A DNA stretch of 64,000 nt from a virus (IMGVR_UViG_3300020577_006835:68588-132587), one strand, 5' to 3'; numbered from the stretch's first letter, positions 1,043 to 63,278 are shown. The notes: generated by a model from the sequence alone, not told the origin. Numbers and translations are program-made.

Positions 1043-1607
1043 TGTCCTTGGTCTGAACAAGACGATTCCGGTCTTGGACCTGGAGCCGTTGGAAGAAGTG
1101 TACTCTCTCGACATTGCGCGAGAGAACCTGCTCGCCCTGTCGCGAGCGGCCGCGCTTGGGGGAGAAGAGTCGGAGGCCGTGGCCGAGACGGCCGATCTGG
1201 TCACCAAGGCCTTCCAGACCGACCTCAAGACGGTCCAGATCGCCTACGGGCGCGCGATCGCCAACCGCAGGACCATCCTGCTGGGGCTCATCGACTCGAT
1301 CGAGAAGAAGCTCAACACCAAGCGTGTCCTGACCAACGACGAGCTGCTCCGCTACCAGATGAACGCGTGGCGCATGGTCATGGACATCACCAAGACCATC
1401 GAGGACACGGTGCAGAACCCGCCGATCGGTGTCGGTGGTGAGCGCTCCGCTGCCCGCGGCCCGCAGACCGAGAAGAGCGTGCAGGACCTCAAGCGTGAGC
1501 GCGCAGCGCGCGACGTCATGCGTGAGCTGCTGGAGCACGTCGACAAGGAGCTGAAGGGGCGACTCGACGTCGTCGCAGAGAGGCCTGAGAAGGAGCCGGC
1601 AGAGTGA
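1011..1607 (+). CDS. hypothetical coiled-coil protein directly upstream of terminase large subunit; small-terminase candidate
   Basis: ORF 1008..1607; stop overlaps GTG start of next gene (GTGA at 1604-1607). Confidence 0.5.
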   Translation: MAEEKPNSKDDVLGLNKTIPVLDLEPLEEVYSLDIARENLLALSRAAALGGEESEAVAETADLVTKAFQTDLKTVQIAYGRAIANRRTILLGLIDSIEKKLNTKRVLTNDELLRYQMNAWRMVMDITKTIEDTVQNPPIGVGGERSAARGPQTEKSVQDLKRERAARDVMRELLEHVDKELKGRLDVVAERPEKEPAE

Positions 1608-4998: not shown

Positions 4999-5304
4999 AT
5001 GACCAAGCGTCAGGCGATCAGGGCTACGGCCAAGCGGATGGGTATCCAGGACGCTGTCCTGGAGAAGCATGTCAATGAGTTCTTCAAGTACGTGGCGGAG
5101 GCTCTGGTCCTTGGTGAAGAGGTTTGGATCTCTCCGATCGGCAAACTGGTCGTCAAGGAACTGAAAAATACCAAGCGTCGAAGGTTGTGGCTGGAACCGT
5201 GCGCCTCAATGAAGTCGACGCTGAAGCGAAACCCGATCGAGGTTCCTGACTGGTACCGGAGTCTGGGAGTGGTGGTGGAGGAGGAACATGGCACAGCAGA
5301 ATAG
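4999..5304 (+). CDS. hypothetical protein
   Basis: ORF track; coding-like codon usage; between terminase and portal. Confidence 0.5.
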   Translation: MTKRQAIRATAKRMGIQDAVLEKHVNEFFKYVAEALVLGEEVWISPIGKLVVKELKNTKRRRLWLEPCASMKSTLKRNPIEVPDWYRSLGVVVEEEHGTAE

Positions 5305-9286: not shown

Positions 9287-9288
9287 TT

Positions 9289-9870
9289 GTGGGCTCCATC
9301 AAGAACCTCATCGACTACGTGAACACCGTCGACGAGATGGTGGAGGACGCCAAGATGTACCTGGACGCCTACGAGAAGGCCCTGCCGTTCACAGGGGACC
9401 GCCGTGAGGTTGTTGTCGACTGGAGCGATCAGGCGTACTACAACGCCGACATGAGCGTGAAGGTAGGCGGAGCCAACACAACGGTGCAGGAGGTCGAGTG
9501 GGACGCCTGGGCCAGGCGGGAGATCGAGAACGCCGAGCTGAAGTACAAAGCGATCCTGAATCGCAACATGGAAGAGGTCAGGGAGGAGGCTCGCAACAAG
9601 ATTGCCGACAAGCTCGCCGCTGACGCGGCCAGGGTCAGGATCGGCAGACTCGACAGGGGCACTCTGATGGGTATCTCTACCGGTCCGACCCCAGAGCTGG
9701 TGACCAAGAAGGCTGGCAAGTCTACATACTACCAACCGCGCCGTCCCAGCCAACCCAACCTCAACCTGCCAGAGCGTGAGGTCATCACCCCGTCCAGGAG
9801 GCGCTCGGAACCGCCACCGCCGACCCGTGACCTGGACCCGAAGCGGGAGATCTCGCTCGAAGATGATTGA
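9289..9870 (+). CDS. hypothetical protein with C-terminal KREISLEDD tail
   Basis: ORF track (GTG start); ends ...KREISLEDD with stop overlapping next start. Confidence 0.55.
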   Translation: MGSIKNLIDYVNTVDEMVEDAKMYLDAYEKALPFTGDRREVVVDWSDQAYYNADMSVKVGGANTTVQEVEWDAWARREIENAELKYKAILNRNMEEVREEARNKIADKLAADAARVRIGRLDRGTLMGISTGPTPELVTKKAGKSTYYQPRRPSQPNLNLPEREVITPSRRRSEPPPPTRDLDPKREISLEDD

Positions 9871-10753
9871 CCAGCGCACCTTGGAGGAGCGTCTCGACTA
9901 CCTGCGCGAGATGCTTGACATCGACGAGTCGAAGCACGTCGCGACTCATCGCGGTGTCCCTCACAGACAGGACTATCTCGACCTTCACTACGATCGGTAC
10001 CCGCACAAGCAGACCGACAAGGAAGAGAAGCGCACACGAGCGGCTGTGCTCGCTGCGGCCGGCATCGCCTCGCTGATCGGCATCTCGAAGCAGAAGATGC
10101 TGCAGCAGTTCTACATGGCCGAGAAGTACCTCAAGCTCTCCAAGACGGCCAAGACACCGTTCGAGAGGCAGAAGGCTCTCAGGCAGTTCGAGTCCATGAT
10201 CCAGCTGATCAAGGCCGGGCTCAGGCAGTCGTACACCAAGAGCTACCGGCTGGGCGTGTCGTCGAGCGGTGTGGGCGGCCAGTTCCGCACCCGGGGCTTC
10301 ATGTCGCCCGAGGAGGCGCGCTGGGTCGAATCGGCTTTCAAGCACGAGATGCGCTACCTGAACCAGCTGGTCAACGACGTGAAGGCGGGCAAGTCTGTGC
10401 CCACGCTGGCCAACAGGATCGGGCTCTACGCCAAGGCGCTGGCGGCGGCTTACAACTCAGGCCAGGTCATGGCCACGAACCGGGACACGCTGATCCACTG
10501 GAGGCTCAGCCAGGACCCGGAGGTGCAGCACTGCGACGACTGCCTGTATCTGGCAGGGCTCAGCCCGTTCGTTCGTGATACGCTGCCCACGGTGCCCAAG
10601 GCGGGCATCTGCAGGTGTTCGAGCAACTGCCGCTGCGAGCTGGAGTACGAGGTCGTCAAGCAGGACGTGGCCAGTCAGGTGCGCGCCGGCAACATGAGCA
10701 AGACGTACGTGGTCCGGAAGATCCGAGACCGCCAGAGAGGCCGGTATGCTTGA
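9863..10753 (+). CDS. hypothetical protein with C-terminal Cys-rich motif (CDDC...CRCSSNCRCE); possible head morphogenesis protein
   Basis: ORF 9776..10753 with start moved to ATG 9863 (MIDQRTLEERLDYLREM), which overlaps the previous stop. Confidence 0.5.
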   Translation: MIDQRTLEERLDYLREMLDIDESKHVATHRGVPHRQDYLDLHYDRYPHKQTDKEEKRTRAAVLAAAGIASLIGISKQKMLQQFYMAEKYLKLSKTAKTPFERQKALRQFESMIQLIKAGLRQSYTKSYRLGVSSSGVGGQFRTRGFMSPEEARWVESAFKHEMRYLNQLVNDVKAGKSVPTLANRIGLYAKALAAAYNSGQVMATNRDTLIHWRLSQDPEVQHCDDCLYLAGLSPFVRDTLPTVPKAGICRCSSNCRCELEYEVVKQDVASQVRAGNMSKTYVVRKIRDRQRGRYA

Positions 10754-11918
10754 AGAGCACGATGACGACATCCCAGTCCTGTCCCTCGAAGACCCGGAGA
10801 TCGAGGAGAACGACGGGGAAGCAGTCGAGAACGCGGTCAAGGGCTCGATCCGCTACGCCTTCATCGGCTCCGGACAGGGTGGCTCGCGGCTGGCGGCCGA
10901 GGCGTACAAGATCGGCTACCGCAAGACGATCTGCATCAACACGGCCCCGCAGGACCTGTCGGCGATCCAGATCCCCGAGGAGCAGAAGCTCTGCCTCGAC
11001 ATCGGTCCAGGGGGCGCCGGCAAGGACCCGGCCCGCGGCGAGGAGGCGACGACCAAGCATCAGCAGGCGATCTACAACCTGATGAAGCAGGTCTTCGGCA
11101 AGCAGATCGACCACATCATGATCTGCGCCGGTGCCGGCGGCGGTTCGGGCGGAGGCTCGGTGCTGCCGCTGATCATGATCGCCAAGCGCTACCTCCAGTT
11201 CCTCGGCCATGTAGAGGATCTTGACAAGCGCGTCGGTGTGGTGCTAACGCTCCCTACCAACAGTGAGGTCGTCGCAGTCCGGGTGGCGTGGAACGCCTAC
11301 CAGGTGGCCTCCAAGGTGTCGGACTTGGCCGAGGCGGGCTCCATCGCGCCGCTGGTCGTGGTCGACAACGACAAGGTCCTGGAGCTGAGACGCGGCATCC
11401 CGATGGTCAAGATGTGGCCAACGGTGAATTTCGATGTGATGAACCTGTTCCACATCTTCAACTTGCTGTCGTTGAAGCACTCATCGTACACGTCCTTCGA
11501 CCCGTCCGACTACGCGTCGGTGGTCAAGGCAGGCGGTCACACGATCATGGGTGTGACGTCGGTCAAACCGGAGCAAGCACAGAACGAAACAGAGATCATG
11601 CGGGTGGTGAAGTCGTCGCTCGACCGCACGTTGCTGGCAGATGGGTTCGACCTGTCGACGGCGACGCACGTGGCGGCGATCGTCATGGCCGGCCGGCAGA
11701 CGCTGGAAGAGGTCCCTGGACTGGCCGAGGTGATCGAGTACGTGTTCAGCATGCTGGGCACGCTGACCAGCGCGCAGCTGGTGCATCGCGGAGTGTACGA
11801 GGACTCACGGCCAGGGCTCAGGATTTACACGATCGTCTCCGGACTGCAGCGTCCGCTCACCAGGTATCGTAGACTCGAAACGCTCTCGCGTGAGAGGTAC
11901 CCTTTCACAGAGCGTTGA
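10746..11918 (+). CDS. tubulin/FtsZ-superfamily GTPase (PhuZ/TubZ-like phage tubulin)
   Basis: FIGSGQGGSRLA (N-terminal GTP loop), INTAPQDL, GPGGAGKDPARG, and tubulin signature-like ICAGAGGGSGGGS align with FtsZ GVGGGGxNA / VNTDAQAL / GLGAGANPEVG / AAGMGGGTGTG. Confidence 0.8.
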   Translation: MLEEHDDDIPVLSLEDPEIEENDGEAVENAVKGSIRYAFIGSGQGGSRLAAEAYKIGYRKTICINTAPQDLSAIQIPEEQKLCLDIGPGGAGKDPARGEEATTKHQQAIYNLMKQVFGKQIDHIMICAGAGGGSGGGSVLPLIMIAKRYLQFLGHVEDLDKRVGVVLTLPTNSEVVAVRVAWNAYQVASKVSDLAEAGSIAPLVVVDNDKVLELRRGIPMVKMWPTVNFDVMNLFHIFNLLSLKHSSYTSFDPSDYASVVKAGGHTIMGVTSVKPEQAQNETEIMRVVKSSLDRTLLADGFDLSTATHVAAIVMAGRQTLEEVPGLAEVIEYVFSMLGTLTSAQLVHRGVYEDSRPGLRIYTIVSGLQRPLTRYRRLETLSRERYPFTER

Positions 11919-28594: not shown

Positions 28595-29089
28595 ATGCTG
28601 GTGATCTCCGGTGGGCAGTCGGGTGCCGACATCGGCGGAGTGGTCGGAGCGTTCTCAGCCGGCCACTCCTGCCTCTTCATCGCTTTCCGCGGCTTCAAGC
28701 CGCAGGGCCGCGACTCCCTGCCGAGCGTGATCCCGTACAAGGACGCCGTCATGCCCGAGTGGGCAGTGTCCTACCCCCAGATGCTCTTGGCCCGTACGCA
28801 GCACAACGTCGAGCTGGCAGATGCGACCGTGGTCTTCATCAACACGATGCACCTGAAGGACTCGATCGGCTCGCGGCGTACCATGGAGTACGCGCAGAAG
28901 ATGCAGCGTCCTCGACTCCTGCTCACCCTGTTCGGGCAGTCTGATGTCGAGCCGACGGCGAGCGTGTTGTCCGAGTGGGTTCAACGTGTGAAGCCAGAAA
29001 TCCTGAACATTGCAGGAAGCAGAACTTGCGACGAGGACTTGGTGAGTCGCATAACCGAGAAAGGGTTGAAGCAATGCTTGACGGTGTGA
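28595..29089 (+). CDS. SLOG-superfamily Rossmann-like protein (MoCo-carrier/YpsA-like motif ISGGQSGADIGG)
   Basis: N-terminal LVISGGQSGADIGGVVGAFSAG glycine-rich nucleotide-binding-like motif. Confidence 0.35.
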   Translation: MLVISGGQSGADIGGVVGAFSAGHSCLFIAFRGFKPQGRDSLPSVIPYKDAVMPEWAVSYPQMLLARTQHNVELADATVVFINTMHLKDSIGSRRTMEYAQKMQRPRLLLTLFGQSDVEPTASVLSEWVQRVKPEILNIAGSRTCDEDLVSRITEKGLKQCLTV

Positions 29090-39661: not shown

Positions 39662-40486
39662 ATGGACGAAACGCGGGTCCAAGATCTGCTTGACGAGGTC
39701 GAGCGCGAGCGCAACGTCAAGATACTGTTTGCCGTCGAGTCCGGTTCCAGGGCCTGGGGTCTCGACTCGCCTAAGAGCGACTGCGACGTGCGCTTCGTAT
39801 TCACCTACCCGCGCGACCGGTACCTGACGATCCAGCCGCCGAACGACGTCATCGTCCACAAGAACGGCGAGATCGAGCTGGACAGCTGGGAGCTGCGCAA
39901 GGCGCTCGGCCTGCTGACCAAGGGCAACCCGACCTGCATGGAGTGGGTCTTCGCGCAGGTGGTCTACCGCGAGCTGGACTGGTCGCACTGGCCTGGGCTC
40001 AAGGTGCTGCGCGACCTGGCGCACCACTACTTCAACCCGATCGCGACCTACTACCACTACCTGCACATCGCGTCCAACAACTACAAGGACTACATCCGAG
40101 GCCGGGGCGAAGTGCCGGTCAAGAAGCTGACGCACGTGTTCCGCGGGCTCTTCAGCGCGATCTGGGTGCTGCAGAACACGACTCTGCCGAAGGTCATGTA
40201 CACCGGCGAACTCACGGACCCGATGCCGGCGCACAACTTCAACACGCTGATGGTTGCCGCCCTGCCGCGCGTGCGCGAGTACCTCACGGAGCAGGAGTGC
40301 GACGAGCTGGTTCAGATCCCTGCCATGAAGAGGGAAGGTGTCGACACGATGCAGGAGCCGGCCTGGCTGGAGCCGTACCTGGACACCGAGCTGCGTGTGC
40401 TCAAGGATGCTGCCAGCTCGGTGCCCAAGCCGCTGCACCAGGACTTCAAGATGCTGGACGAGTTCTTCCGGGCTTCGCTACGCTGA
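39662..40486 (+). CDS. Pol-beta-superfamily nucleotidyltransferase (PF10127/RlaP-like)
   Basis: ILFAVESGSRAWGLDSPKSDCDVRFVF fits the GS..G...SD.D signature; about 270 aa with a helical C-terminal domain. Confidence 0.55.
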   Translation: MDETRVQDLLDEVERERNVKILFAVESGSRAWGLDSPKSDCDVRFVFTYPRDRYLTIQPPNDVIVHKNGEIELDSWELRKALGLLTKGNPTCMEWVFAQVVYRELDWSHWPGLKVLRDLAHHYFNPIATYYHYLHIASNNYKDYIRGRGEVPVKKLTHVFRGLFSAIWVLQNTTLPKVMYTGELTDPMPAHNFNTLMVAALPRVREYLTEQECDELVQIPAMKREGVDTMQEPAWLEPYLDTELRVLKDAASSVPKPLHQDFKMLDEFFRASLR

Positions 40487-52415: not shown

Positions 52416-52550
52416 GTGGGTGTAGTTTAGAGGTCTAGAACGGCCCGAACGGGAGCTGCTGATGGCCACAGCTAACAGCCCTGGGACTGATCACCCTGGG
52501 TCAACTGGGCTCCCCGGTGGACGACGCAGGTTCGAATCCTGCCACCCGCA
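52416..52550 (+). ncRNA. 135-nt tRNA-like element: canonical acceptor, D-arm and T-arm, with a 55-60 nt insertion in the anticodon region and a long variable region
   Basis: GTGGGTG TA GTTT AGAGGTCTA GAAC ... GCAGGTTCGAATCCTGC CACCCGC A; followed by ACCA; internal direct repeat CCCTGGG x2. Confidence 0.35.
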
Positions 52551-52601
52551 ACCAACAATCAACTTGGAGGCGTCACCACGTTGCGCTACTACGTGGGCAC
52601 G

Positions 52602-53672
52602 ATGCAGAAACCTGAATACCTGATCATCGGATCAGGGCTCACAGGTGCGACGATCGCCCGCTTGCTGCATGACGCCGGCAAGCGGGTTCTCGTGCTTGAG
52701 AGCCGAAGCCACCCGGGCGGCAACGTCTGGGACGACATCTACGAGGACACCGGGATCTGGTACCACCTGTACGGGCCTCACTACTTCCGCACCGACTCGG
52801 AGCGCGTGTGGGCCTTCGTCAACCGCTTCTGCAACTGGCGACCATGGGCGGCACGCGTCTCGATCGAGCACAAGGACAAGCTCCGGCCCTGGCCGCTGAC
52901 GCCTGAGGAGCTGGCCGAGTTCGGCAAGATCGAGCCTCCGGAGCGCGTCGAGAACTTCCGCGACGCCTGCCTGACGAAGATGCCGCGGGCTGCGTACGAG
53001 GCCTTCGTCGAGCCCTACAACCTGAAGCAGTGGGGTGTGTCGCCGCTGCAGCTGAAGCCCACGCTGGCCGGCCGGATCGACACCGCGGGGGACGATCCTT
53101 TGCGCCGCCTCAAGCCACAGAGGTACCAGGCGCAGCCGATGGGCGGCTACCAAGCCCTGATCAAGAACATGCTGCGCGACATCCCGGTCGAGGTGGGTCA
53201 CCACTTCGAGCTGGACGAGTGGAGCGGTGATGGCCACCTGGTCTTCACCGGCTCGAGCGACGAGCTGTTCGACAAGCGCTTCGGGCCGCTGCCGTACCGG
53301 TCTCAGGAGAGGGCAGTCGTCTACTACCCGTTCCAGAGTCAGCGCGAGTGGCCGACACCGCAGGTCAACTTCCCTTCTCTGCTCGACATCCCGATCCGCG
53401 GCATCGAGTGGAGGCATCTCGGCCCGCCGACCACCAAGTGGGGCGCGCTGATCACCTGGGAGATGCCGAGAGCTGGTGGCCTGGAGTATCCTATCCCGAC
53501 GTTCGAGGCCGAGGCCCTGTACGAGCGGTACAGGGCGCTGCTGCCTGAGCTGGAGCGGGTCACGGTCGCTGGCAGACTAGGGCGGTTTCAGTACCTCGAC
53601 ATGGATCAAGCGATTGGCGCCGCTATGGTGTTGGCTGGGAGGCTGCTGAAAGGTGAAAAAGATCCAGCTTGA
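52602..53672 (+). CDS. glf: UDP-galactopyranose mutase
   Basis: YLIIGSGLTGATIA...GKRVLVLESRSHPGGN...YGPHYFRT...GGYQALIKNML...VAGRLGRFQYLDMDQAI aligns along the whole length with bacterial Glf. ORF track start is TTG 52581; ATG 52602 is preferred. Confidence 0.8.
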   Translation: MQKPEYLIIGSGLTGATIARLLHDAGKRVLVLESRSHPGGNVWDDIYEDTGIWYHLYGPHYFRTDSERVWAFVNRFCNWRPWAARVSIEHKDKLRPWPLTPEELAEFGKIEPPERVENFRDACLTKMPRAAYEAFVEPYNLKQWGVSPLQLKPTLAGRIDTAGDDPLRRLKPQRYQAQPMGGYQALIKNMLRDIPVEVGHHFELDEWSGDGHLVFTGSSDELFDKRFGPLPYRSQERAVVYYPFQSQREWPTPQVNFPSLLDIPIRGIEWRHLGPPTTKWGALITWEMPRAGGLEYPIPTFEAEALYERYRALLPELERVTVAGRLGRFQYLDMDQAIGAAMVLAGRLLKGEKDPA

Positions 53673-54396
53673 TGAGGTGAGAGTGGTCGAGTTGTACCGG
53701 CAAGGGAGAAGCCTACCGCAAGTGGCGGTGGAGATGCACTGCTCTCCGGGTACAGTGAAGAAGTGTTTGACCGGTCTCGGTGTCAAGATCCGCAGAGCCA
53801 GGCCTCTCAGTGAGCAGATCGAGATCGGTAGGCGGTTCGGCAGGCTGACCGTGACCGACTTGATGATGACGGCACGCAGAGATGGGCCAGGGCTCACACT
53901 GACAGCTCTCTGCAGCTGTCAGTGCGGTCGCAGCGGTCTTGAGAAAAGAGCTAGCAACCTGTTGAGCGGCACGACTACATCCTGCGGGTGTAGGCCAAGA
54001 ATCGGCGCTGACGGTCCGCGATGGAAAGGTTGTGGCCAGCTGAGCGGGTACGCCTGGGCTCAGATCACAGCATCTGCCAGAAGCCGTGCTGATAGGCAAA
54101 AGGCTCACTTCGAAGTTACTATCGAGGAGGCGTGGCAGTTGTTTGAAGCCCAAGGTGGTCGGTGTGCTCTGAGCGGGCTGCCGATCTGCTTTGCCGAGAC
54201 AGCTGAGAAGAAGAGGCAAGGGCAGCAGACAGCCTCTCTAGACAGGATTGATTCCAGAGCGGGTTACACAGTCGGTAATCTGCAGTGGGTTCACAAGGAC
54301 ATCAACAAGCTCAAGAGTGACTTCCAAGAGGGGAGATTCGTTGAGCTGTGCAAGCTCGTGGCCGATTACCAAGCAGAGAGGCTGTTGCATGGGTGA
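53653..54396 (+). CDS. HNH homing-endonuclease-like protein with N-terminal HTH
   Basis: GTG start; C-terminal GGRCALSGLPI...ASLDRIDSRAGYTVGNLQWVHKDINKLK; inserted between glf and the GT2 gene. Confidence 0.6.
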   Translation: MKKIQLDEVRVVELYRQGRSLPQVAVEMHCSPGTVKKCLTGLGVKIRRARPLSEQIEIGRRFGRLTVTDLMMTARRDGPGLTLTALCSCQCGRSGLEKRASNLLSGTTTSCGCRPRIGADGPRWKGCGQLSGYAWAQITASARSRADRQKAHFEVTIEEAWQLFEAQGGRCALSGLPICFAETAEKKRQGQQTASLDRIDSRAGYTVGNLQWVHKDINKLKSDFQEGRFVELCKLVADYQAERLLHG

Positions 54397-55231
54397 GAAG
54401 ATCTCGGTGATGGTGCCCTACTACAAGGAAGACGGGGCGCAGGTACGAACGCTGTTGCAGTCGCTGCCGATGAACATGCTGCACGAGGTGGCTGTGGTCG
54501 ATGACGGCGGCAACGGTTCGATCAAGGACTTCCTGCCGCCAGGGGTCAAGTACTACAGGCATGACGAGAACGTCGGACCCACCGGCAACTACAACAGGTG
54601 TATCGAGCATGCGACCGGTGACCTGGTGCACATCATGCACGCCGACGACGTCGTGCAGGTGGCTTTCTACATCGGGATCACCGGCCTGGCGCAAAAGTGG
54701 CCCGACTGCGCCTTCTACGGCACGCAGCACTTCCACATGCAGGAGGGCAACAACCAGGTCTTCGTACCGGCGTACCAGTTCTTCCTGTTCACGCCGACCG
54801 ACGATCCGACCACCCTGTACTACGGCAACGCGTTCGCAGCCTCGGCCTGTGTGATCCGGCGCTCCTTCTTCGCGAAGCACGGTTACTACAACGAGAAGCT
54901 GGTCCATGTGGCAGACTGGGAGATGTGGGTACGAGCGATCAGGTTTGGCGGCGGGGTCTACCTGCCGGCGCCACTGGTCACGTACTTGACGTCCAGCAGG
55001 AATCACACGACACACCTCGCGATGACCGGCGACAACTTCCGCGACACGCTGCAGCTGGCACCGATCTTCGAGGAGTACGGCGGAGACAAGTTCGACAAGA
55101 GGAAGTTCTACGAGACGGTGCTCGCATCGACCGAGGCTCAGGCCAAGGGTCTGGAGGCCGCCGGGTTGAAGGATGCCGCCAAGCACAACCGTAAGCTGGC
55201 GCACGAGATCAAGGGGAGACTCAATGGGTAA
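54389..55231 (+). CDS. family-2 glycosyltransferase (GT-A fold)
   Basis: ORF 54248..55231, start moved to ATG 54389 (ATGGGTGA overlap); ISVMVPYYKEDGAQVRTLLQSL...HEVAVVDDGGNGS. Confidence 0.6.
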   Translation: MGEKISVMVPYYKEDGAQVRTLLQSLPMNMLHEVAVVDDGGNGSIKDFLPPGVKYYRHDENVGPTGNYNRCIEHATGDLVHIMHADDVVQVAFYIGITGLAQKWPDCAFYGTQHFHMQEGNNQVFVPAYQFFLFTPTDDPTTLYYGNAFAASACVIRRSFFAKHGYYNEKLVHVADWEMWVRAIRFGGGVYLPAPLVTYLTSSRNHTTHLAMTGDNFRDTLQLAPIFEEYGGDKFDKRKFYETVLASTEAQAKGLEAAGLKDAAKHNRKLAHEIKGRLNG

Positions 55232-55778
55232 GGTTGAAGCGCTCAGCAAGGCGTCCCAGGTCGCCGGATTCATGTACGAGCATGAGCTGGAGTGGCTCTA
55301 CGACCAGGCCTGTGACCGCGACATCATCATCGAGATTGGTGTCTGGAAAGGGCTCAGCACGACCGTGCTCTGTGAGGCTTGTCCGGGCGTCGTGATCGCT
55401 GTCGACCACTTTTCCGGTGGCTCGGACGAGGGGGATGCGAGCCCGGCCGCGGCCAAGAACCAGAATGTCAGGGCGGTCGCCATCGAGAACCTCAAGCCAT
55501 ACCTGGATTCAGGCAAGCTGATCCTGGTGCAGACCCCGTCCGACAAGGCGTTTGAGACCCTGCGCAAGCTGTTCCCCGGTCGCTTCGCCGACATGGTCTA
55601 CATCGACGGAGACCACCGGACCGAGGCCGTGAAGCTGGACTTGAGGTACAAGGACCTGATCAAGGACGGCGGACTACTCTCAGGGCACGACTGGGATTGG
55701 AGCAGTGTGCGCGAAGCAGTGGCGCCGCTGAAGCCTGTGACCCTGGGTCGCATGTGGTGGACGCTGATCGGCGGTTGA
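55227..55778 (+). CDS. TylF/MycF-like class I SAM-dependent (sugar) O-methyltransferase
   Basis: ORF 55173..55778, start moved to ATG 55227; IIEIGVWKGLST, VDHFSGG, VYIDGDH, LSGHDWDW. Confidence 0.55.
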   Translation, partial: GKVEALSKASQVAGFMYEHELEWLYDQACDRDIIIEIGVWKGLSTTVLCEACPGVVIAVDHFSGGSDEGDASPAAAKNQNVRAVAIENLKPYLDSGKLILVQTPSDKAFETLRKLFPGRFADMVYIDGDHRTEAVKLDLRYKDLIKDGGLLSGHDWDWSSVREAVAPLKPVTLGRMWWTLIGG

Positions 55779-55801
55779 CAAGCCGCCAGGTCGTGTGCTA
55801 A
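55775..55801 (+). promoter_or_regulatory. promoter-like motif TTGACA-N14-GTGCTAA
   Basis: gTTGACAagccgccaggtcgtGTGCTAAaaagatcggATG. Confidence 0.5.
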
Positions 55802-55810
55802 AAAGATCGG

Positions 55811-57361
55811 ATGTCGTACCTCGGCTACAAGCTGCACCCTGAGAGCAGGGACAGACTGCTGCACCGCTTCCCCGCGGTGCACCCGGAGGTGGTCGCACAC
55901 CACGTGACGACCGACCTGCTGGGGAAGCGGTACACGGCCTTCAGGCCCGAGGATGCGCACGTCGAGGTCATCGGCCACGCAGCCAACAGCCTGGTCCAGG
56001 CTGCCGTGCTGCGCGTCAACGGCAAGACGCACCGTGACGACGGGGAGCCGTTTCATGTCACACTGTCCGTGAACAGGAAGCTCGGAGGGTCGCCCAAGGA
56101 CTCGAAGGAGCTGATCCGCCAGGGTTACGAGAAGGTGGACCCGTTCACGATCCAGGCCGAGCCCGAGTATTTCCAGGAGGAAGTCACGCCAGTTTTGTCC
56201 AAATACGATCACGTCATCCGTGCGGTGCAGGACTTCACAGGGTTGAAGCCGTACCTCGTCGGCGGAGCTGTGCGTGACGCGATGCTGGGCAAGCCGTCCA
56301 AGGACACGGACCTGGTGGTCGTGGGCGGCCACGACAAGCTGCACAAGCTCGGCTTCAAGCCGATCAAGAAGGACTTCCCGGTCTTCACGCACCCGAAGTT
56401 CCCCGGCGTCGAGGTTGCTCTGGCCCGCGGCGAGAAGAAGACCGGCACCGGCCACAGCGGCTTCGACTGGCACGAGGCGGCCGACCTGACCACGGACTTG
56501 AATCGCAGGGATTTCACGGTCAACGCGATGGCCTATCACCCGGACGACGGCGTGATCGACCACCACGGCGGCATGAGCGACCTGCAGAACAAGAAGCTGC
56601 GCCACGTGTCGGATGCCTTCTCTGAGGACCCGCTGCGCACGTTCAGGGCGGCCCGCTTCGCGGCCAAGCTGGGCTTCGATGTCCACCCGGACACGATCCC
56701 AGTGCTGCGAGCGACCAATCCGGAGCTGCCGGCGCTGTCCAAGGAGCGCGTGCGCGACGAGTTCAGCCGGGCCATGATGACCAAGAACCCGAGCCGGTTC
56801 TTCAAGACGCTCAAGCTGTCCGGCTCGCACGAGCACTGGTTCCCGGAGGCTGCGCACCTGAAGGACTCGACGATGCGGGCGCTCGACTCGGCTGCGGCCG
56901 GCGGGGCGTCCGAGGAGGCCAGGCACCTGGTCCTGACCCACGCCATGTCACCGGAGACGATCAAGGCCTTCGACGCACGGCTGGGTGTGGGAGCGGCCGA
57001 CACGGCACGCAAGCTGACGCACGCCAAGTACTCGCCCATGGGCACGGCCAGGCACCAGAGCCCGGACGCGGCCGCGGAGCACTGGAGGGCGGTCCGCTCG
57101 ACGCTCATGGGGCCTCATCTGCAGGCGCTGGCCCACCAGGGCGGCAACCAGGTGGAGCACCTGAAGGGGCTCTTCAAGAGGCTGGGAGAGGTCAGGATCG
57201 AGCCCCAGAAGGGCAAGAGGGCCGACGTGGCGGCCATTCGCAGCACGTACGCAGCTGCGGCCGCGCAGTACCTCAAGGAGAGCGTGAACAAGGTCGACGA
57301 GCTGATCGCAGAGGCATTGAAAGGAATGAATGGGTATGGGGATCGGACCGAGCTGGGGTAG
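55811..57361 (+). CDS. fusion of N-terminal 2H-phosphoesterase-like domain (two HxT motifs) and class II tRNA nucleotidyltransferase (CCA-adding enzyme / PcnB family)
   Basis: N-terminal HHVTTD and FHVTLS; then LVGGAVRDAMLGKPSKDTDLVVVG (GGxVRD...DxD head motif), RRDFTVNAMAY, DPLRTFRAARFAAKLGF. Confidence 0.7.
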   Translation: MSYLGYKLHPESRDRLLHRFPAVHPEVVAHHVTTDLLGKRYTAFRPEDAHVEVIGHAANSLVQAAVLRVNGKTHRDDGEPFHVTLSVNRKLGGSPKDSKELIRQGYEKVDPFTIQAEPEYFQEEVTPVLSKYDHVIRAVQDFTGLKPYLVGGAVRDAMLGKPSKDTDLVVVGGHDKLHKLGFKPIKKDFPVFTHPKFPGVEVALARGEKKTGTGHSGFDWHEAADLTTDLNRRDFTVNAMAYHPDDGVIDHHGGMSDLQNKKLRHVSDAFSEDPLRTFRAARFAAKLGFDVHPDTIPVLRATNPELPALSKERVRDEFSRAMMTKNPSRFFKTLKLSGSHEHWFPEAAHLKDSTMRALDSAAAGGASEEARHLVLTHAMSPETIKAFDARLGVGAADTARKLTHAKYSPMGTARHQSPDAAAEHWRAVRSTLMGPHLQALAHQGGNQVEHLKGLFKRLGEVRIEPQKGKRADVAAIRSTYAAAAAQYLKESVNKVDELIAEALKGMNGYGDRTELG

Positions 57362-57668
57362 GAGTGCAAGGGTCAGCGCAGCCGCGACTCCGACATCGAA
57401 GACGGCGCCCAACCCGAATCCGCACAGGTTTCAGATCCGCTGGATCAAGGAGTACTCGAACTGCACTGCGGCGCTGGTGCACTACCCGGACTGCGACAAC
57501 TTCGAGGGCGAGAAGCTGCTGGTCTTCTCTGGGATGTGCGCCGCGAAGATCAGGGCCATGAGAGTGCTCGACCCACACTTCAGGGAGGACATGAACTTGA
57601 TCGCGCGTCTCCGACCTGACGAGCTAGGCATGAGGGTGTTGAAGAAGATCGCGATCGAGAAGAAGTGA
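57330..57668 (+). CDS. hypothetical protein (start uncertain)
   Basis: ORF track; overlaps the end of the previous gene. Confidence 0.35.
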   Translation: MGMGIGPSWGRSARVSAAATPTSKTAPNPNPHRFQIRWIKEYSNCTAALVHYPDCDNFEGEKLLVFSGMCAAKIRAMRVLDPHFREDMNLIARLRPDELGMRVLKKIAIEKK

Positions 57669-57671
57669 GAC

Positions 57672-58292
57672 GTGAGAAAACTGATCCTGGTTCGCCACGG
57701 TGAGTCCGCTGCCAACGTCAGCGAGATCATCAGCGGTGACCCGCAGACACCGTTGACCGACCTGGGCGTGCACCAGGCGACCAACACCGGCAAGCAGATC
57801 GCGATGAAGTACGACCCGCGAGAGCTGCAGATCGTGGCCAGCCCGTACAAGAGGGCGCACGACACAGCTCTGCACATCGCACGCGAGATCGGTCACGACC
57901 CGTCGTCGATTGTGCTTGACCCGGAGCTGCGCGAGCGCCACTTCGGTGAGTTCGAGGGTAGGCACGTCGACTTCCAGAAGGTGCCCGGGTATGTCGTCCA
58001 GGTACGCAAGGGCTACAACCGCGCCAACGAGCACTTCAGGCCTGATGGTGGTGAGTCGCTGGTCGACGTGAGCAACCGCGCCGTGCCGGCGATTCAGCGT
58101 CACCTGGCCGCGTTCCCCGGCAAGCACTTGTTGGTCGTGGCGCACGGGCACGTCATCAAGGCCTTCCACGGCTGGCACCAGGGGCACTGGGACAAGATCC
58201 CTCGCGTGCAGAACGCCGAGGCCCGTGAGTTCGATCTGAAGGAGTCTCACGTCGGTGTAGAGGCTCTGATCGCCGAGCTGCTCTCGCAGTAG
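57672..58292 (+). CDS. histidine phosphatase superfamily (phosphoglycerate-mutase-like) protein
   Basis: GTG start; LILVRHGESAAN (RHG motif)...VVAHGHVIKA. Confidence 0.7.
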   Translation: MRKLILVRHGESAANVSEIISGDPQTPLTDLGVHQATNTGKQIAMKYDPRELQIVASPYKRAHDTALHIAREIGHDPSSIVLDPELRERHFGEFEGRHVDFQKVPGYVVQVRKGYNRANEHFRPDGGESLVDVSNRAVPAIQRHLAAFPGKHLLVVAHGHVIKAFHGWHQGHWDKIPRVQNAEAREFDLKESHVGVEALIAELLSQ

Positions 58293-58317
58293 CGACCCAG
58301 GTCCACGGCGGGGTATC

Positions 58318-59589
58318 ATGCTCCTCGTGGACGACTTCGAGAGCGCTCCCGTCATGGGGTGGATCTCTCCGAAAGGGGAGGTCCACGAGCTTGGCGGTTA
58401 CAACAACCACGACCGTTGGGCCTACGCCAAGCACGGCGTCTCTGCGGACTTCCTCATGTCCAAGGGGTGGGTGCGCAAGGCGCATCGAGACTCCTACGAG
58501 GCTGGCAGCGACAGCGCTCTGCCGCGCGTGCTGAAGCACGTTCGCCGGCACCACCCGGACGTCGGTGAGTTCTACTTCGACACGCCGTCGCAGAAGACGC
58601 TCGGAGGCGTGCGTACCTGGCTCGTGCCCGTGAGCCGTCCCGGTGCGAAGCAGCTCTTGGGGGAGGGCCACAACGAGGTCCCGGCCTACGGCTGGATCTC
58701 TCCCACCGGAGAGACTCATGACCTGGGGGGTTACAACGACCACGATCGCTGGGCAGAGCGTGTGCAAGGCATGACGAGCGATCAGCTCCTGAGCAAGGGT
58801 TGGATTCGCAAGGGGTCGCCGCACGCCTATCAAGCCGGCAGCGACAGCGCGCTACCACGCGTGCTGAAGCACATTCGCCTACACCACCCTATGGCTCAGA
58901 ATTTCTACTTCGACACGCCGTCCGAGAAGCATCCGGGCGGTCTGCGCTCGTGGCATGTCCCTGTGCGCATGCCAGGCTCGAAGCGGCTGCTTGGCGACGT
59001 GCCAAAGGGTGTGTGGCTGACCAGGGATAGTTCCGTGGTGAAAGAAGTCGTCGAGGCCATCGTGCGTGGCCGCTATGCGGGTGGGCGCGGGGTCGACCCT
59101 GTTGCGCAGTGGAACGCGTACTTCAACAACCGCCCAGCGGGGTGGATCACACCCACGGGCGACTTCCACTCGCTCTCCGACCTACCTGAGGGTAGGCGCA
59201 CGCACCCGCGTTGGATCGAGGCCAACCAGGACATCGTCAAGCAGTACGGTCACCTGGTGGTCAAGGGTCCGCACGCTGCAGAGAACACACACGACGCCAT
59301 GATGCGCGGTGGCTGGGTCCAGAAAGAAAACAAGGATCGCTACCGTGTTTGGGGTCCTGAGGCATTGAAAACCGTTCAGGACCATGTGAAGAAGCACCAC
59401 CCTGAAACCAGGGAGGTGACGGTCGAGATCGTGAACCCTGCAAAGGGTGGTACGAGCTTCAAGTCCCCGGTCTACGAGAGCGAGGATGCCATGCGAGCCT
59501 CGCTCGCAAGCTGGTTGATTCACATCGCGTTGGGTGGAGGGGCAGGTGGGCATCGTTCGCTCGATCGGTACGGACTTCAAGAACCCTGA
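58318..59589 (+). CDS. protein built of three tandem repeats of about 100 aa each
   Basis: Repeat 1 and repeat 2 share GWISP.GE.H.LGGYN.HDRWA...SKGW.RK....Y.AGSDSALPRVLKH.R.HHP....FYFDTPS.K..GG.R.W.VPV; the third copy is diverged. Confidence 0.55.
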   Translation: MLLVDDFESAPVMGWISPKGEVHELGGYNNHDRWAYAKHGVSADFLMSKGWVRKAHRDSYEAGSDSALPRVLKHVRRHHPDVGEFYFDTPSQKTLGGVRTWLVPVSRPGAKQLLGEGHNEVPAYGWISPTGETHDLGGYNDHDRWAERVQGMTSDQLLSKGWIRKGSPHAYQAGSDSALPRVLKHIRLHHPMAQNFYFDTPSEKHPGGLRSWHVPVRMPGSKRLLGDVPKGVWLTRDSSVVKEVVEAIVRGRYAGGRGVDPVAQWNAYFNNRPAGWITPTGDFHSLSDLPEGRRTHPRWIEANQDIVKQYGHLVVKGPHAAENTHDAMMRGGWVQKENKDRYRVWGPEALKTVQDHVKKHHPETREVTVEIVNPAKGGTSFKSPVYESEDAMRASLASWLIHIALGGGAGGHRSLDRYGLQEP

Positions 59590-59866
59590 CGGGACCTACA
59601 CATGCGCCCCTTGCGATGGAGGCGGGCGCGCACCATGTCGTTGCGATTGTGGCTGCCCTTGTATCCCGGACCAGGACGGGATCTGCAGCTGTTGCAGGGA
59701 GGCGTTGGAGATAGAGGCCTTCGCGTTCGACGCGGAGGATGAAGCGGTTGTGGTTCAGGCTCGCCGGCTACTCGGTCTCCCGCCGTGGATTCGCGAGGTG
59801 CCGGCCACGGGGGGTGGCGATGCAGCAGCTGTCGTTCGAGTGGAATCTGACGGAGCCGAAGATTGA
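59534..59866 (+). CDS. small Cys-rich protein (CAPCDGGGRAPCRCDCGCPCIPDQDGICSCC)
   Basis: ORF track (GTG start); overlaps the end of the repeat protein. Confidence 0.3.
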   Translation: MEGQVGIVRSIGTDFKNPDGTYTCAPCDGGGRAPCRCDCGCPCIPDQDGICSCCREALEIEAFAFDAEDEAVVVQARRLLGLPPWIREVPATGGGDAAAVVRVESDGAED

Positions 59867-60200
59867 CCCAGGACTGCAAAGCTTTGTGCTGCGCGCCCAG
59901 CTCCTCGGCGGGTACATCGTCAGTTCCAAGGACTGCTCTGATGAGGAGCTGGAGCAGGCCAAGGCCGAAGGGCGCTTCTACAGCAGCTACGGCAACCGCG
60001 AGTACGTCTTCAGAGAGTAGAACTGTGCACAAGCATGACATCGACTTCATGAGGCTGGCCGGCCCGTACGAGTGTGACAACTGCGGACTGGAGCAGCCTG
60101 TGGTGAGCAGGTGCGTGACCTGCGTCGCGTTCATCTGCGAGAAGTGCTTGACGCAACCAGCTGCCCTCGAACGGCACTCGATGTGCCTGGGAGCCTAGTA

Positions 60201-61067
60201 GTGGACGAGTTCCGAGCATCAAGAATCATTGACGCCATCCTGTCCGGCGAGCCGCTCAGCAGAGCGCTGGTAGAGGCGTCTCCGCAGCCTGCGTTCCACA
60301 ACGCGTACGAGTGGCATGACAGCCACACCAAGCACTACAAGCGGCTGAACGAAGAGGACGAGGTGCATGCGACCAACGCGCAGGCGGCCGCTGGCAGGAT
60401 CTCGACCTACCAGCAGTTCGCTCGCGACTACGGGCGCATCGACCCTGGCACACGTACCAACCTGAAGATCTACAAGTACGGGCCGGAGCACTCGCGTGCG
60501 ATCGACGCTCTGATCCAGCGCCACGGCTACCAGGTGTACTACGCTGGTGGGAAGTACGGGAAGCCGGACCTGGCCAACAAAAACTACGACACTGGGCATT
60601 TGATGGTGTACGACCCGTCTGAGGGGTCTGGAGGGGATTTCGGCGAGCAGGCGTATACAGAGCACTGGAGAAAAACGCACGAACTTGCGCACGCGCTTAC
60701 CCACCAGACGTTGAACGCCAAGTACGGTGAAGCTCGCAGGATGGGGAAGCTGGGGCACCACCGTACTCCACATGAGGCTCTCCGAGCTGTTGAGTGGGAA
60801 CACATGGCCGCCAACAAGCAACGGGAGTTGAGCGCTGCTATTGGTGTCCACTTGTCAGACAGTGACTTTGGGAGGGAGTACAACACTGTGCTTCACGATG
60901 CCGTGCACCGTGCTGTGACTGGGCTTTTTACCAACCCCAGTGTTGAAGGTTTCCACCCACATGATGTAGCTGTGCCTCTCTCCCATTCGCTGGCACTTGT
61001 CCAAGCGCATGCAGATAAGATGAAGCTGGGGCCGCATGACACCTTGAAGAGGAAAGCAGGTCAGTGA
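60201..61067 (+). CDS. hypothetical protein with HExxH motif ([10 protein letters not shown])
   Basis: Part of ORF 60111..61067, from GTG 60201. Confidence 0.45.
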
Positions 61068-61780
61068 GGAAGACGCAGGCACAGCAGTGCGCTGAGACTG
61101 GCTGTGATGTTGTGCTGCCGAAAGCTCGGAGTGTTGAAGCCAGGTGCGCACGGCACGCGCTAATGCTTTGGAAGCGCAGCAACGCCGAGCAGGTCAAGAA
61201 GTACGAAACTGAGTACCGCAAAGCGCACAAAGAGCAGATCAACGCTACCAGGAGATTGAGGCTAGCTGAGCCAGAGGTGCGGGCCATTACCAGGGCTCGC
61301 GATCGTGCCCGCCTTGAGCAGAAGAGGTTGTATGTAGCTGCGAATCGCGAGCGGTACCAGGAGTTGCACCGCAGTTACTATCCGCGCTATCGAGAGCGGT
61401 ACCAGAGGCGGTACCAGGAAAACCGTGAGAAGCTGCTAGCTCAGAATAAGTCCTGGCAAGCAAAAAACAAGGATAGAGTGAAAGCCAAGCGTGAGGAGTG
61501 GAAGGCGGCAAACCCTGGAAAGGTCAGAGCTGAGTGGGCGAGGCGTCGCGCTGCGAAGATGCAGGCGATGCCGCGGTGTTTGACCGCGGAGCAACTGCTT
61601 CAGCTCGAACGAATCTACGAGAGTTGCCCGCCTGGGTACCACGTCGACCACATCGTACCGCTTCGCGGCAAAGACGTCTCCGGGTTACACGTACCGTGGA
61701 ACCTGCAGTACTTGCCGGCAGCAGAGAATCTTCGCAAGAGCAACAAGTACAGTAGTTCGCGCAGCATTGTCGCTGTGTGA
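61064..61780 (+). CDS. HNH endonuclease
   Basis: GTG start; C-terminal [38 protein letters not shown]. Confidence 0.7.
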
Positions 61781-61815
61781 GGAGGCGCCAGTAGTGGGCT
61801 AGCGAGGAGGAACCT

Positions 61816-62070
61816 ATGGGTCGACTGGGAATGTGTCTGCTCATGTTTTGTTTGACGGCAACCAGTGTGGCCGGGGCGATAACCTTCAAGATGAACCACG
61901 AAGGCAACTCTGTTGCATGTAGGGAAGAGAGGAAGTTCTTGATGGACTGGGATGCGGAGCTGCACACAGCGGCACAGCTGGCTGCGTACGAGCCCTTCGC
62001 GGGCCTGACACAGCCGACGACGACACCAACACCGGCGATGACGGCCGGCGGCCGCGACTACCAGGGCTGA
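61816..62070 (+). CDS. small secreted protein (signal peptide)
   Basis: ORF track; RBS AGGAGGAACC. Confidence 0.45.
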   Translation: MGRLGMCLLMFCLTATSVAGAITFKMNHEGNSVACREERKFLMDWDAELHTAAQLAAYEPFAGLTQPTTTPTPAMTAGGRDYQG

Positions 62071-62288
62071 TGGGTAAGCGGTCGTTCAAGGCCTGGCTCA
62101 CCGGCCAGCGCCTGCGCAAGGACAGTGTCGGCACGATCGCGCGCTTCGTGTGCGACGACAGCAGGATCTTGATGGGTGCACCGAACGCACACACGGTGCA
62201 CGTGCGACTCGATCAGTACGGGCTGCTCACCGCGACGAGAGCCAAGGCTCTCCAGAAGGCGGAGGCCGAGTGGCGAGAGACCTGGTAA
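62070..62288 (+). CDS. small hypothetical protein
   Basis: ORF track. Confidence 0.4.
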   Translation: MGKRSFKAWLTGQRLRKDSVGTIARFVCDDSRILMGAPNAHTVHVRLDQYGLLTATRAKALQKAEAEWRETW

Positions 62289-62548
62289 TCGAGCACGGCG
62301 TCGTCGCCTATCAGTGGGACGACGAGAGTCCGACGCCGTGCACGGTGCTCCACTTCGTCGGCTACCCAATCTTCCCGGACGATGCGGAGATGGATCGCCT
62401 GCTGCAGGACCTGGCCACCGACCCGTGCTTCGGTCTGATCGGCATCCCGTTTGCCCTCAAGAGGGCGACCCCTGAGCAGGTCAGGTTCTACATGGAGGAC
62501 ATCCCGGAAGATGTTCTTGTCATCGAAGACGAGGACGATTTCTGTTGA
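62279..62548 (+). CDS. small acidic hypothetical protein
   Basis: Part of ORF 62150..62548, from GTG 62279. Confidence 0.35.
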   Translation, partial: DLVIEHGVVAYQWDDESPTPCTVLHFVGYPIFPDDAEMDRLLQDLATDPCFGLIGIPFALKRATPEQVRFYMEDIPEDVLVIEDEDDFC

Positions 62549-62571
62549 CAGCTACTTGGAGGGGGTGCTAG
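62545..62571 (+). promoter_or_regulatory. promoter-like motif TTGACA-N14-GTGCTAG (copy A of duplicated element)
   Basis: gTTGACAgctACTTGGAGgGGGTGCTAGAGGCGCC. Confidence 0.45.
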
Positions 62572-62598
62572 AGGCGCCTCAAATTTGTGGGGGTGGTG

Positions 62599-63158
62599 TG
62601 GAGCATTACTATCAGAGTGTTCAAGGTTGGTTCGTCGAGGGCGATATAGCTTTCTACAAGACCCTGCTTTCAATGATTCCGGACGGCGGGGTTTTTGTTG
62701 AGGTTGGCTCGTGGAGAGGGAGATCCTTCTCATACATGCTCGTCGAGGCCTTGAACACCAACAGGCAGATCAAGATGGTCTCCGTCGACCACTTCGGCGG
62801 GTCACCAGAGGAGCACATCTTTTTCGGTGCCGACAGCGGTGAGGTAAGGAACTGTTTCCTTAGCAACGCTTCCAGGTCGGGCTACCCGTACGAATTGATC
62901 GAGGCCCCCTCACTGGTAGCCGCCGAGCGGTTCCAGGATGAGTCTGTCGATGCGGTTTTCATCGACGCTGCCCACAACGAGCAGGATGCAACTGCGGACT
63001 TCGCCGCTTGGTTGCCGAAGGTCAAAGTAGGGGGAGTACTCTCCGGGCACGACTCCCATTTCCCTGGCGTTCAAGCGGCGTGGGCGAACAACGGGCTGCA
63101 GCCCATCATCGTTGGTGACACGGAGGCAGGCGGGTCCTGCTGGTATCTCATCAAGTAA
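62599..63158 (+). CDS. TylF/MycF-like SAM-dependent O-methyltransferase (paralog of 55227..55778)
   Basis: VEVGSWRGRSFSY, VSVDHFGGSPEE, VFIDAAH, LSGHDSHF; start set at GTG 62599 within ORF 62451..63158. Confidence 0.5.
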
Positions 63159-63161
63159 GTG

Positions 63162-63188
63162 TTGACAACCACTTGGAGAGGGTGCTAG
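63162..63188 (+). promoter_or_regulatory. promoter-like motif TTGACA-N14-GTGCTAG (copy B of duplicated element)
   Basis: gTTGACAaccACTTGGAGaGGGTGCTAGAGGCGCC. Confidence 0.45.
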
Positions 63189-63278
63189 AGGCGCCCTCGA
63201 AACGTCGGGCAGCGACGTGAGCATGGTGCTCGAAGCCGAGAGGCACTGCACTAGACAGTCAGAGAACAGGAGGAGACC

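Follow-up and report, generated by a model that had tools for sequence, protein, structure and literature searches.

A putative pathway of mutase, glycosyltransferase and O-methyltransferase for a methylated furanose glycan in an uncultured large phage

What would a phage make with a UDP-galactopyranose mutase? The question is raised by a 64-kb stretch of viral DNA (IMGVR_UViG_3300020577_006835:68588-132587), referred to as the window, which has ~62% G+C, carries nearly all of its genes on the plus strand and comes from an uncultured large phage. The functional unit at 52581-55778 (~3.2 kb) comprises a mutase-family gene (Glf), an inserted HNH-type endonuclease gene, a gene for a GT2 glycosyltransferase and a gene for a methyltransferase (MT1); a second methyltransferase gene (MT2) is separate from it, 6.8 kb away. 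On balance, Glf, GT2 and MT1 probably belong to a single pathway, derived from bacteria, of three soluble and translationally coupled enzymes that would make a methylated galactofuranose (Galf) glycan. The genes concerned are as follows.

52581..53672 (TTG start, Joint Genome Institute (JGI) gene call) or from ATG 52602, plus strand: Glf, a flavoenzyme of the UDP-galactopyranose mutase family (Pfam, PDB, active site)
53653..54396, plus strand: free-standing HNH/His-Me-finger endonuclease gene with an N-terminal helix-turn-helix (HTH) (phrog_3322, phrog_1035, phrog_3118)
54389..55231, plus strand: GT2 glycosyltransferase (GT-A fold), putative galactofuranosyltransferase (PF00535, structural model, Glf adjacency)
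55224..55778, plus strand: MT1, a Methyltransf_24 methyltransferase dependent on S-adenosylmethionine (SAM), putative sugar O-methyltransferase (PF13578, MeT1 match)
62598..63158 (alternative start ATG 62511), plus strand: MT2, a second Methyltransf_24 methyltransferase (PF13578, E = 6.5e-18)

All of these genes lie where an initial annotation of the window had placed them, give or take one base, and an independent JGI gene call on an identical contig gives the same boundaries for Glf, the endonuclease, GT2 and MT1. Neighbouring genes overlap: the endonuclease gene shares 20 nt with Glf and 8 nt with GT2, and GT2 shares 8 nt with MT1.

The mutase, glycosyltransferase and methyltransferase genes

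Five lines of evidence argue for a single pathway and uphold the role in glycan synthesis and decoration proposed in the initial annotation, namely gene order in phages, adjacency of the glycosyltransferase gene to Glf in bacteria, the polysaccharide-locus neighbours of the bacterial genes, a viral fusion of GT2 with a methyltransferase, and the match of the methyltransferases to MeT1. The order Glf-GT2-MT is kept in three phage lineages: that of the window (with the near-identical contigs L001 and L091-L093), that of L003 (73, 79 and 71% amino-acid identity to the window Glf, GT2 and MT) and that of L089/L090 (52, 43 and 55%). GT2 and Glf are also adjacent in L002. On the viral contig L110 (IMGVR_UViG_3300020577_014401, 110 kb) Glf is followed immediately, at 9082-10929, by a 615-aa fusion of GT2, DUF3431 and Methyltransf_24, and on L125 Glf is followed by a 400-aa Methyltransf_24 protein with a weak RMNT_CmcI match. 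The L110 fusion probably corresponds to phrog_2675, labelled 'DNA methyltransferase' in PHROGs, a label that may be wrong. None of the module enzymes has a 19-residue Kyte-Doolittle window above 1.4, so no transmembrane segment is predicted.

In bacteria, a profile search of one genome per species recovered the GT2 clade at no more than 37% identity to the phage enzyme. Most members come from Planctomycetota, Verrucomicrobiota, Acidobacteriota and cyanobacteria, and the closest relatives belong to the first three of these groups and to Omnitrophota. In 22 of 80 loci (13 of the closest 30) the GT2 homologue has Glf within 6 kb, often as its direct neighbour. Also nearby are further GT2 and GT4 genes along with ABC transporter and Wzt_C genes, a set that is usual for polysaccharide loci of the ABC-transporter type. 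Locus L006 has the order Methyltransf_24/TylF(weak)-Glf-GT2-x-MBOAT, and L008 contains two GlfT2-like genes, Glf, GT2 and GT4. The L006 methyltransferase has no BLASTP similarity to MT1 or MT2 and therefore counts only as a neighbour of the same Pfam family. Such loci (L006, L008 and others of Planctomycetota and Verrucomicrobiota) resemble the window in having this GT2 clade beside Glf, sometimes with a Methyltransf_24 gene, but they also carry transporters, more glycosyltransferases and acyltransferases, whereas the phage keeps three soluble enzymes. To judge from the sequences, bacterial Glf-containing polysaccharide loci are the likely evolutionary source of the module.

Membership of Glf in the UDP-galactopyranose mutase (UGM) family, as first annotated, is borne out by the motifs then quoted, among them the FAD-binding GSGLTGA, and by a GLF domain scoring 97.7 bits against a Pfam cut-off of 26.3 (E = 1e-27), with NAD_binding_8 at E = 3.2e-16; the nearest solved relative is the Deinococcus radiodurans UDP-galactopyranose mutase (3hdq, E = 2e-55). 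Residues were compared in a MAFFT alignment with the Klebsiella pneumoniae (Kp), D. radiodurans and Escherichia coli enzymes and the 60 closest relatives, using Kp numbering. H60, Y155, W160, R174, N270, R280, Y314, R343, Y349 and D351 are all kept. Loss of the conserved active-site Arg and Tyr residues had been named beforehand as an outcome that would count against the assignment; the catalytic Arg pair and most active-site Tyr and Trp residues are in place.

GT2 scores 52.5 bits on PF00535 (cut-off 23.3, E = 7e-14), D86 and D87 of its DxD motif are invariant, and its AlphaFold model (predicted local distance difference test (pLDDT) 92) has GT2 enzymes as its top PDB matches, all in keeping with the GT-A fold GT2 first annotated. 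A galactofuranosyltransferase using UDP-Galf as donor is the activity suggested for it by sequence and gene context. Its similarity to GlfT2 is not significant.

MT1 and MT2 score 51 and 66 bits on PF13578 and share the invariant residues of their family (E37, G39, G43, D61, D123, D128, H131 and D156). Their profile matches Mycobacterium hassiacum MeT1 (6g7d) with E = 6.7e-14, and the MT1 model (pLDDT 92) has MeT1 entries as its top Foldseek matches (TMq 0.80), ahead of cation-dependent catechol O-methyltransferases. MeT1 is an experimentally proven sugar 1-O-methyltransferase (PMC9883506). This enzyme of methylmannose polysaccharide (6G7D) is the best match of MT1 and MT2 both by sequence profile and by structure, with the SAM-binding ExGxxxG and the DGxH motifs aligned; it differs from them in its ~21% identity, its 3-O-methyl-mannoside substrate and its intracellular polysaccharide context. 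MT1 is thus a putative sugar O-methyltransferase on profile and model evidence. The earlier TylF/MycF-like label is to be replaced by Methyltransf_24 (PF13578), with MeT1 as the nearest solved structure. Membership of the TylF family was rejected: in Pfam, PF13578 alone is reported for MT1 and MT2, with no match to PF05711 at E <= 0.01, and TylF structures are outside the top 50 fold matches.

From the family assignments, the linkage and the fusion, all observed here, we infer the substrates and the order of steps. Glf would convert host UDP-galactopyranose, and possibly UDP-N-acetylgalactosamine (UDP-GalNAc) too, to UDP-galactofuranose; the GT-A glycosyltransferase would move the furanose onto an acceptor in the cytoplasm of the infected cell; and the MeT1-like, probably metal-dependent methyltransferase would O-methylate the sugar, possibly as a cap. 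MT2 would probably be an additional decorating enzyme.

Several observations weigh against a methylated Galf glycan as the product. Three substrate contacts of Glf are replaced (Kp H63 by Arg, N84 by Ala and Y185 by Leu), so the sugar could differ. Glf scores 187.1 bits on NCBIfam TIGR00031, under its equivalog cut-off of 303.75. The best matches of the GT2 model (WrtF, AvpGT, TarP/TarS and RmlT) reach a TM of about 0.6-0.67, which is generic for GT-A enzymes. The methyltransferase family is labelled 'DNA methyltransferase' in PHROGs, and, phages apart, a methyltransferase linked to Glf and GT2 was seen at a single bacterial locus. Glf can accordingly be called a member of the UGM family by sequence, not demonstrably the same enzyme. 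The replacements at positions 63, 84 and 185 are shared by essentially every one of the 60 relatives, whether from bacteria or viruses, and therefore mark a large distinct Glf subfamily; no characterised member with Arg, Ala and Leu at these positions was found among those relatives (P0001-P0060).

A pathway of the same architecture with other chemistry, in which the mutase acts on UDP-GalNAc or another nucleoside-diphosphate sugar and the product is not a Galf glycan, would fit these replacements. The Arg of the subfamily, at Kp H63 (E. coli H59), aligns with residue 59 of the Campylobacter jejuni enzyme (4mo2), and the score under the TIGR00031 cut-off points the same way. Arg59 of that enzyme reportedly contributes to the use of UDP-GalNAc, which makes the alignment a lead only, and the remaining catalytic residues of Glf all match bona fide UGMs. 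Such a change of sugar is considered improbable, and Galf remains the sugar expected.

Inserted and intervening genes

The HNH gene overlaps both of its neighbours, as the initial annotation had it, and appears to be a selfish gene of the homing type inserted where Glf meets GT, with cleavage activity predicted. Its product matches the PHROG endonuclease/HNH families phrog_3322, phrog_1035 and phrog_3118 (E = 7e-19 to 3e-11); HNH models of Pfam are unmatched, with weak HTH matches alone, and a sequence search against solved structures gave no match. Huge phages carry several copies of related genes, and in Ralstonia phages the relatives bear the annotation HNH endonuclease. In L003 and L089, Glf and GT2 overlap directly with no gene between them, and in the window the junction is present twice.

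53634..53674, plus strand: left copy of the duplicated Glf-3'/GT-5' junction (~41 bp), found by local alignments including the uninterrupted L003 junction
54372..54412, plus strand: right copy of the duplicated junction, carrying the GT start codon, found by local alignments

Aligned to the L003 junction, the right copy scores 86 and the diverged left copy 34. Glf now ends in ...AGRLLKGEKDPA before its stop codon, against an ancestral ...ADRLLNG; the endonuclease gene starts inside the left copy and its product ends in ...AERLLHG, an echo of the ancestral Glf C-terminus. Third-position G+C (GC3) of the endonuclease gene is 0.65, compared with 0.82-0.87 for Glf, GT2 and MT1. Because the ~41 bp junction was duplicated, both flanking genes stayed intact. 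Of the recent homing-endonuclease insertion first proposed, the insertion stands, given its absence from L003 and L089, the duplicated junction and the low GC3; 'recent' can be said only with reference to the divergence from the L003 lineage, as the HNH gene is present in every near-identical contig. The insertion with its duplicated junction offers a natural example of a homing gene entering a translationally coupled operon without breaking it.

The span 52602-63158 had been described as a single cassette. It is not one, because 55811-62548 (~6.8 kb) is filled with unrelated genes, and a 10.5-kb cassette was rejected as the genes between MT1 and MT2 have no glycan link. These encode a CCA-adding enzyme, a 112-aa open reading frame (ORF), a His_Phos_1 phosphatase, a 423-aa internally repeated protein, ORFs of unknown function and a second, classical HNH protein.

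55811-57361, plus strand: CCA-adding enzyme with a ~140-aa N-terminal extension matching phrog_36523
58318-59589, plus strand: 423-aa protein with internal repeats and no family match

Two repeats of the 423-aa protein gene recur at a 333-nt period (65-104 nt, 77% identity), with a third, weaker 36-nt copy 450 nt onward. The CCA-adding enzyme, the RNA-repair nucleotidyltransferase RlaP (39662-40486) and 20 tRNA genes together look like a phage tRNA maintenance toolkit beside the glycan module. A further 135-nt tRNA-like gene (52416-52550, plus strand; Rfam tRNA, 38.7 bits, E = 2.9e-5) lies ~30 nt 5' of Glf; missed by default ARAGORN, it is read as tRNA-Val(cac) with a 42-nt intron and a long extra arm when introns are allowed, an uncertain identity. 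The stretch 60111-63158, with a 318-aa ORF of unknown function, the classical HNH gene (61064-61780) and MT2, has a GC3 of 0.68-0.72 compared with ~0.85 elsewhere and may be a more recently acquired segment.

MT2 lies within this low-GC3 stretch, shared with the second HNH gene, and is itself atypical in composition (GC 0.57, GC3 0.72). Its start was first given as 62599, a position outside the reading frame; GTG 62598, preceded by a GGGGGTGG Shine-Dalgarno-like run, is the likely start codon, and a gene caller placed the start at ATG 62511 on a near-identical contig. The gene is bracketed by a 36-nt direct repeat.

62543..62578, plus strand: 36-nt direct repeat, copy 1, 20 nt 5' of the MT2 start
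63160..63195, plus strand: 36-nt direct repeat, copy 2, beginning 2 nt past the MT2 stop

The copies are identical at 33 of 36 positions and are the only two in the window, with 0 expected by chance. MT2 had been taken for a paralogous second copy behind a duplicated promoter. A second Methyltransf_24 gene and a duplicated element are indeed present; recent duplication is not supported, as MT1 and MT2 are 30% identical and by sequence are distant relatives, and the 'promoter' label was dropped because a sigma-70 consensus scan found none at the repeat, which includes TTGACA, or upstream of Glf. Rather than marking a promoter, the repeat brackets the gene, and MT2 looks like a separately acquired gene. 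A scan of metagenomes for the repeat gave 0 matches, and no relative lacking MT2 was found. MT2 is 43% identical to the methyltransferase domain of the L110 fusion, and it may be functionally tied to the pathway since its closest relatives are Glf-linked in other viruses.

Candidate acceptors of the glycan

To what would the furanose be attached? Phage structural proteins are slightly favoured, tentatively and at less than even odds. The leaning toward the virion follows from the conservation of the soluble trio across phage lineages, from Glf modules that adjoin terminase/portal genes in L004 and L125, and from mycobacteriophage precedent. In mycobacteriophages of clusters O and F1 (Corndog gp35-38, Che8), as in the window, one or more soluble glycosyltransferases are encoded beside an O-methyltransferase; decoration of capsid proteins is the role proposed for such clusters and, for Che8, the one reported (PMC4351075, PMC11256854). 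The mycobacteriophage clusters have no nucleotide-sugar mutase and are found inside the structural operon of small actinophages, whereas the window has Glf and a GT2 of a different clade, in a large tRNA-rich phage and far from the portal gene. Two points count against a virion acceptor: the module is ~45 kb from the portal gene, amid tRNA and RNA-repair genes and not structural genes, and the bacterial relatives of GT2 belong to polysaccharide loci, which favours a glycan rather than a protein as acceptor.

Intermediates of host envelope glycans come close behind the virion, as a possible though doubtful target. Here the soluble GT2 would attach Galf, on the cytoplasmic side, to lipid-linked intermediates of O-polysaccharide or wall glycan, and the methyltransferase would cap them. 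The cell surface altered in this way might, for instance, keep out superinfecting phages or prevent progeny from adsorbing to debris. The closest GT2 relatives, in bacterial ABC-transporter-type loci with Glf, GT4, ABC_tran and Wzt_C genes, are consistent with such remodelling, and the structural matches of GT2 include TarP, a glycosyltransferase of wall teichoic acid that is encoded by a prophage. Terminal methylation caps the chain in pathways of this kind, as with WbdD of E. coli O8/O9a. However, the phage lineages that retain the module probably infect different hosts, the neighbourhood encodes neither a transporter nor a lipid-carrier enzyme, and GT2 is no more than 37% identical to the bacterial enzymes. 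The 64-kb window has no temperate-phage marker, though it does not allow absence from the phage to be claimed.

Phage DNA is a very unlikely acceptor. Under DNA hypermodification, Glf would supply UDP-Galf for glycosylating a hydroxylated pyrimidine, as is proposed for the glycosylated 5-hydroxycytosine of Pootjesviridae (Rhizobium phage RL38J1), to which a phage Glf has been tied (PMC13326640). Glf, annotated in 88 phage records, lies amid DNA-metabolism genes in T4-like phages and in phage DSL-LC01, and a small ORF of the window matches a dATP/dGTP diphosphohydrolase domain. RL38J1 resembles the window in that a phage Glf-family mutase would supply a furanose donor to phage glycosyltransferases (PMC13326640), but its system needs a ThyA-like 5hodCMP synthase and glycosyltransferases resembling GT4-type enzymes, neither of which is seen in the window; its Glf is ~30% identical to that of the window, and the window avoids restriction sites.

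Searches for a DNA-modification system cover the 64 kb of the window, out of a genome that is 140 kb or longer; a JGI contig of 140,644 bp carries an identical Glf. Within these 64 kb, no thymidylate-synthase-like gene is present among the scanned coding-like ORFs of at least 200 aa and 42 smaller ones, and no GT4-type (GT-B) DNA glycosyltransferase was found. GT4-type enzymes have the GT-B fold. The window GT2 is a GT-A enzyme, whereas the DNA glycosyltransferases tabulated in PMC13326640 resemble GT4-type, and the partners of Glf in cultured phages are unrelated to the window GT2. Five 6-bp palindromes are strongly avoided across the window, which would be unexpected if C or T were globally shielded: CTCGAG occurs once (45.6 expected), and GAGCTC (33 expected), ATCGAT (20), GGATCC (12.7) and GGGCCC (12) do not occur. 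CTAG is seen 40 times against 87 expected. The scarcity of palindromes suggests selection from host restriction systems. It points to DNA that restriction enzymes can reach, not to DNA protected throughout by hypermodification. Structural proteins stay slightly ahead of the envelope, and both well ahead of DNA.

The source phage and the meaning of the module

Additional information about the phage can be drawn from the rest of the window. A T4-like portal gene (5288-9286, plus strand) has two intein/Hint segments inside it, one with an HNH_3 domain, and a second intein-bearing ORF of 1127 aa (1604-4987, plus strand) has an intein with a LAGLIDADG domain. A TubZ/PhuZ-like tubulin gene (10746-11918, plus strand; Tubulin and TubZ-like_C domains) is typical of large phages. 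The window further encodes 20 tRNAs, an AAA ATPase, an SPFH protein, the RlaP nucleotidyltransferase and endonuclease VII. A Pfam scan of pooled small ORFs gave a dATP/dGTP diphosphohydrolase N-terminal domain (E = 1e-16), an NAPRTase (E = 1e-12) and a cpYpsA SLOG domain ORF at 28595-29089.

Megablast against 50,697 phage records gave zero matches, and a search with the portal protein found distant cultured relatives only and otherwise huge metagenomic phages. By tblastn against cultured phages, GT2 has one weak match and MT1 none; with nothing beyond that match from these searches and from megablast of the region, no cultured relative is available. An IMG/VR scan with the GT2 profile added one locus, the distant L094. 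The link to actinobacteriophages and cell walls drawn in the initial annotation finds no support here, as there is no megablast phage match, the CCA-adding enzyme fits the proteobacterial-type model (224 bits) better than the actinobacterial one (101 bits), and the nearest bacterial GT2 relatives are non-actinobacterial. Actinobacteriophage origin was rejected, since the window shows nothing that marks an actinophage.

In the chlorovirus PBCV-1, protein A064R fuses glycosyltransferase domains to a sugar methyltransferase domain and acts on the capsid glycan. By description it resembles the GT2-DUF3431-methyltransferase fusion of L110, but it belongs to a eukaryotic virus and to rhamnose chemistry. 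The novelty first claimed for a phage-made methylated Galf glycan is smaller than it seemed, as phage Glf genes and clusters of glycosyltransferase and O-methyltransferase genes are already described (PMC13326640, PMC4351075). New here are the Glf-GT2-Methyltransf_24 trio, conserved in an uncultured lineage of large phages, together with its fusion variant from another virus, its bacterial source loci and the resolved endonuclease insertion.

Taken with the fusion proteins, the trio operons raise the possibility, a tentative and as yet doubtful one, of a widespread viral pathway for an O-methylated Galf (or GalfNAc) glycan on virion proteins of large non-actinobacterial phages. If so, phage capsid glycosylation would extend beyond mycobacteriophages and would use a furanose sugar that is absent from animals. 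Virions decorated in this way would carry a phage-made glycan shield bearing on phage immunogenicity, stability and adsorption, and virion glycosylation would not be peculiar to actinophages. If instead the host surface is rewritten, the module would be a compact case of a lytic-type phage taking over three soluble reactions from bacterial polysaccharide synthesis. In both cases, the trio of Glf, GT2 and methyltransferase, with its fusion form, offers a clean, testable three-enzyme system.

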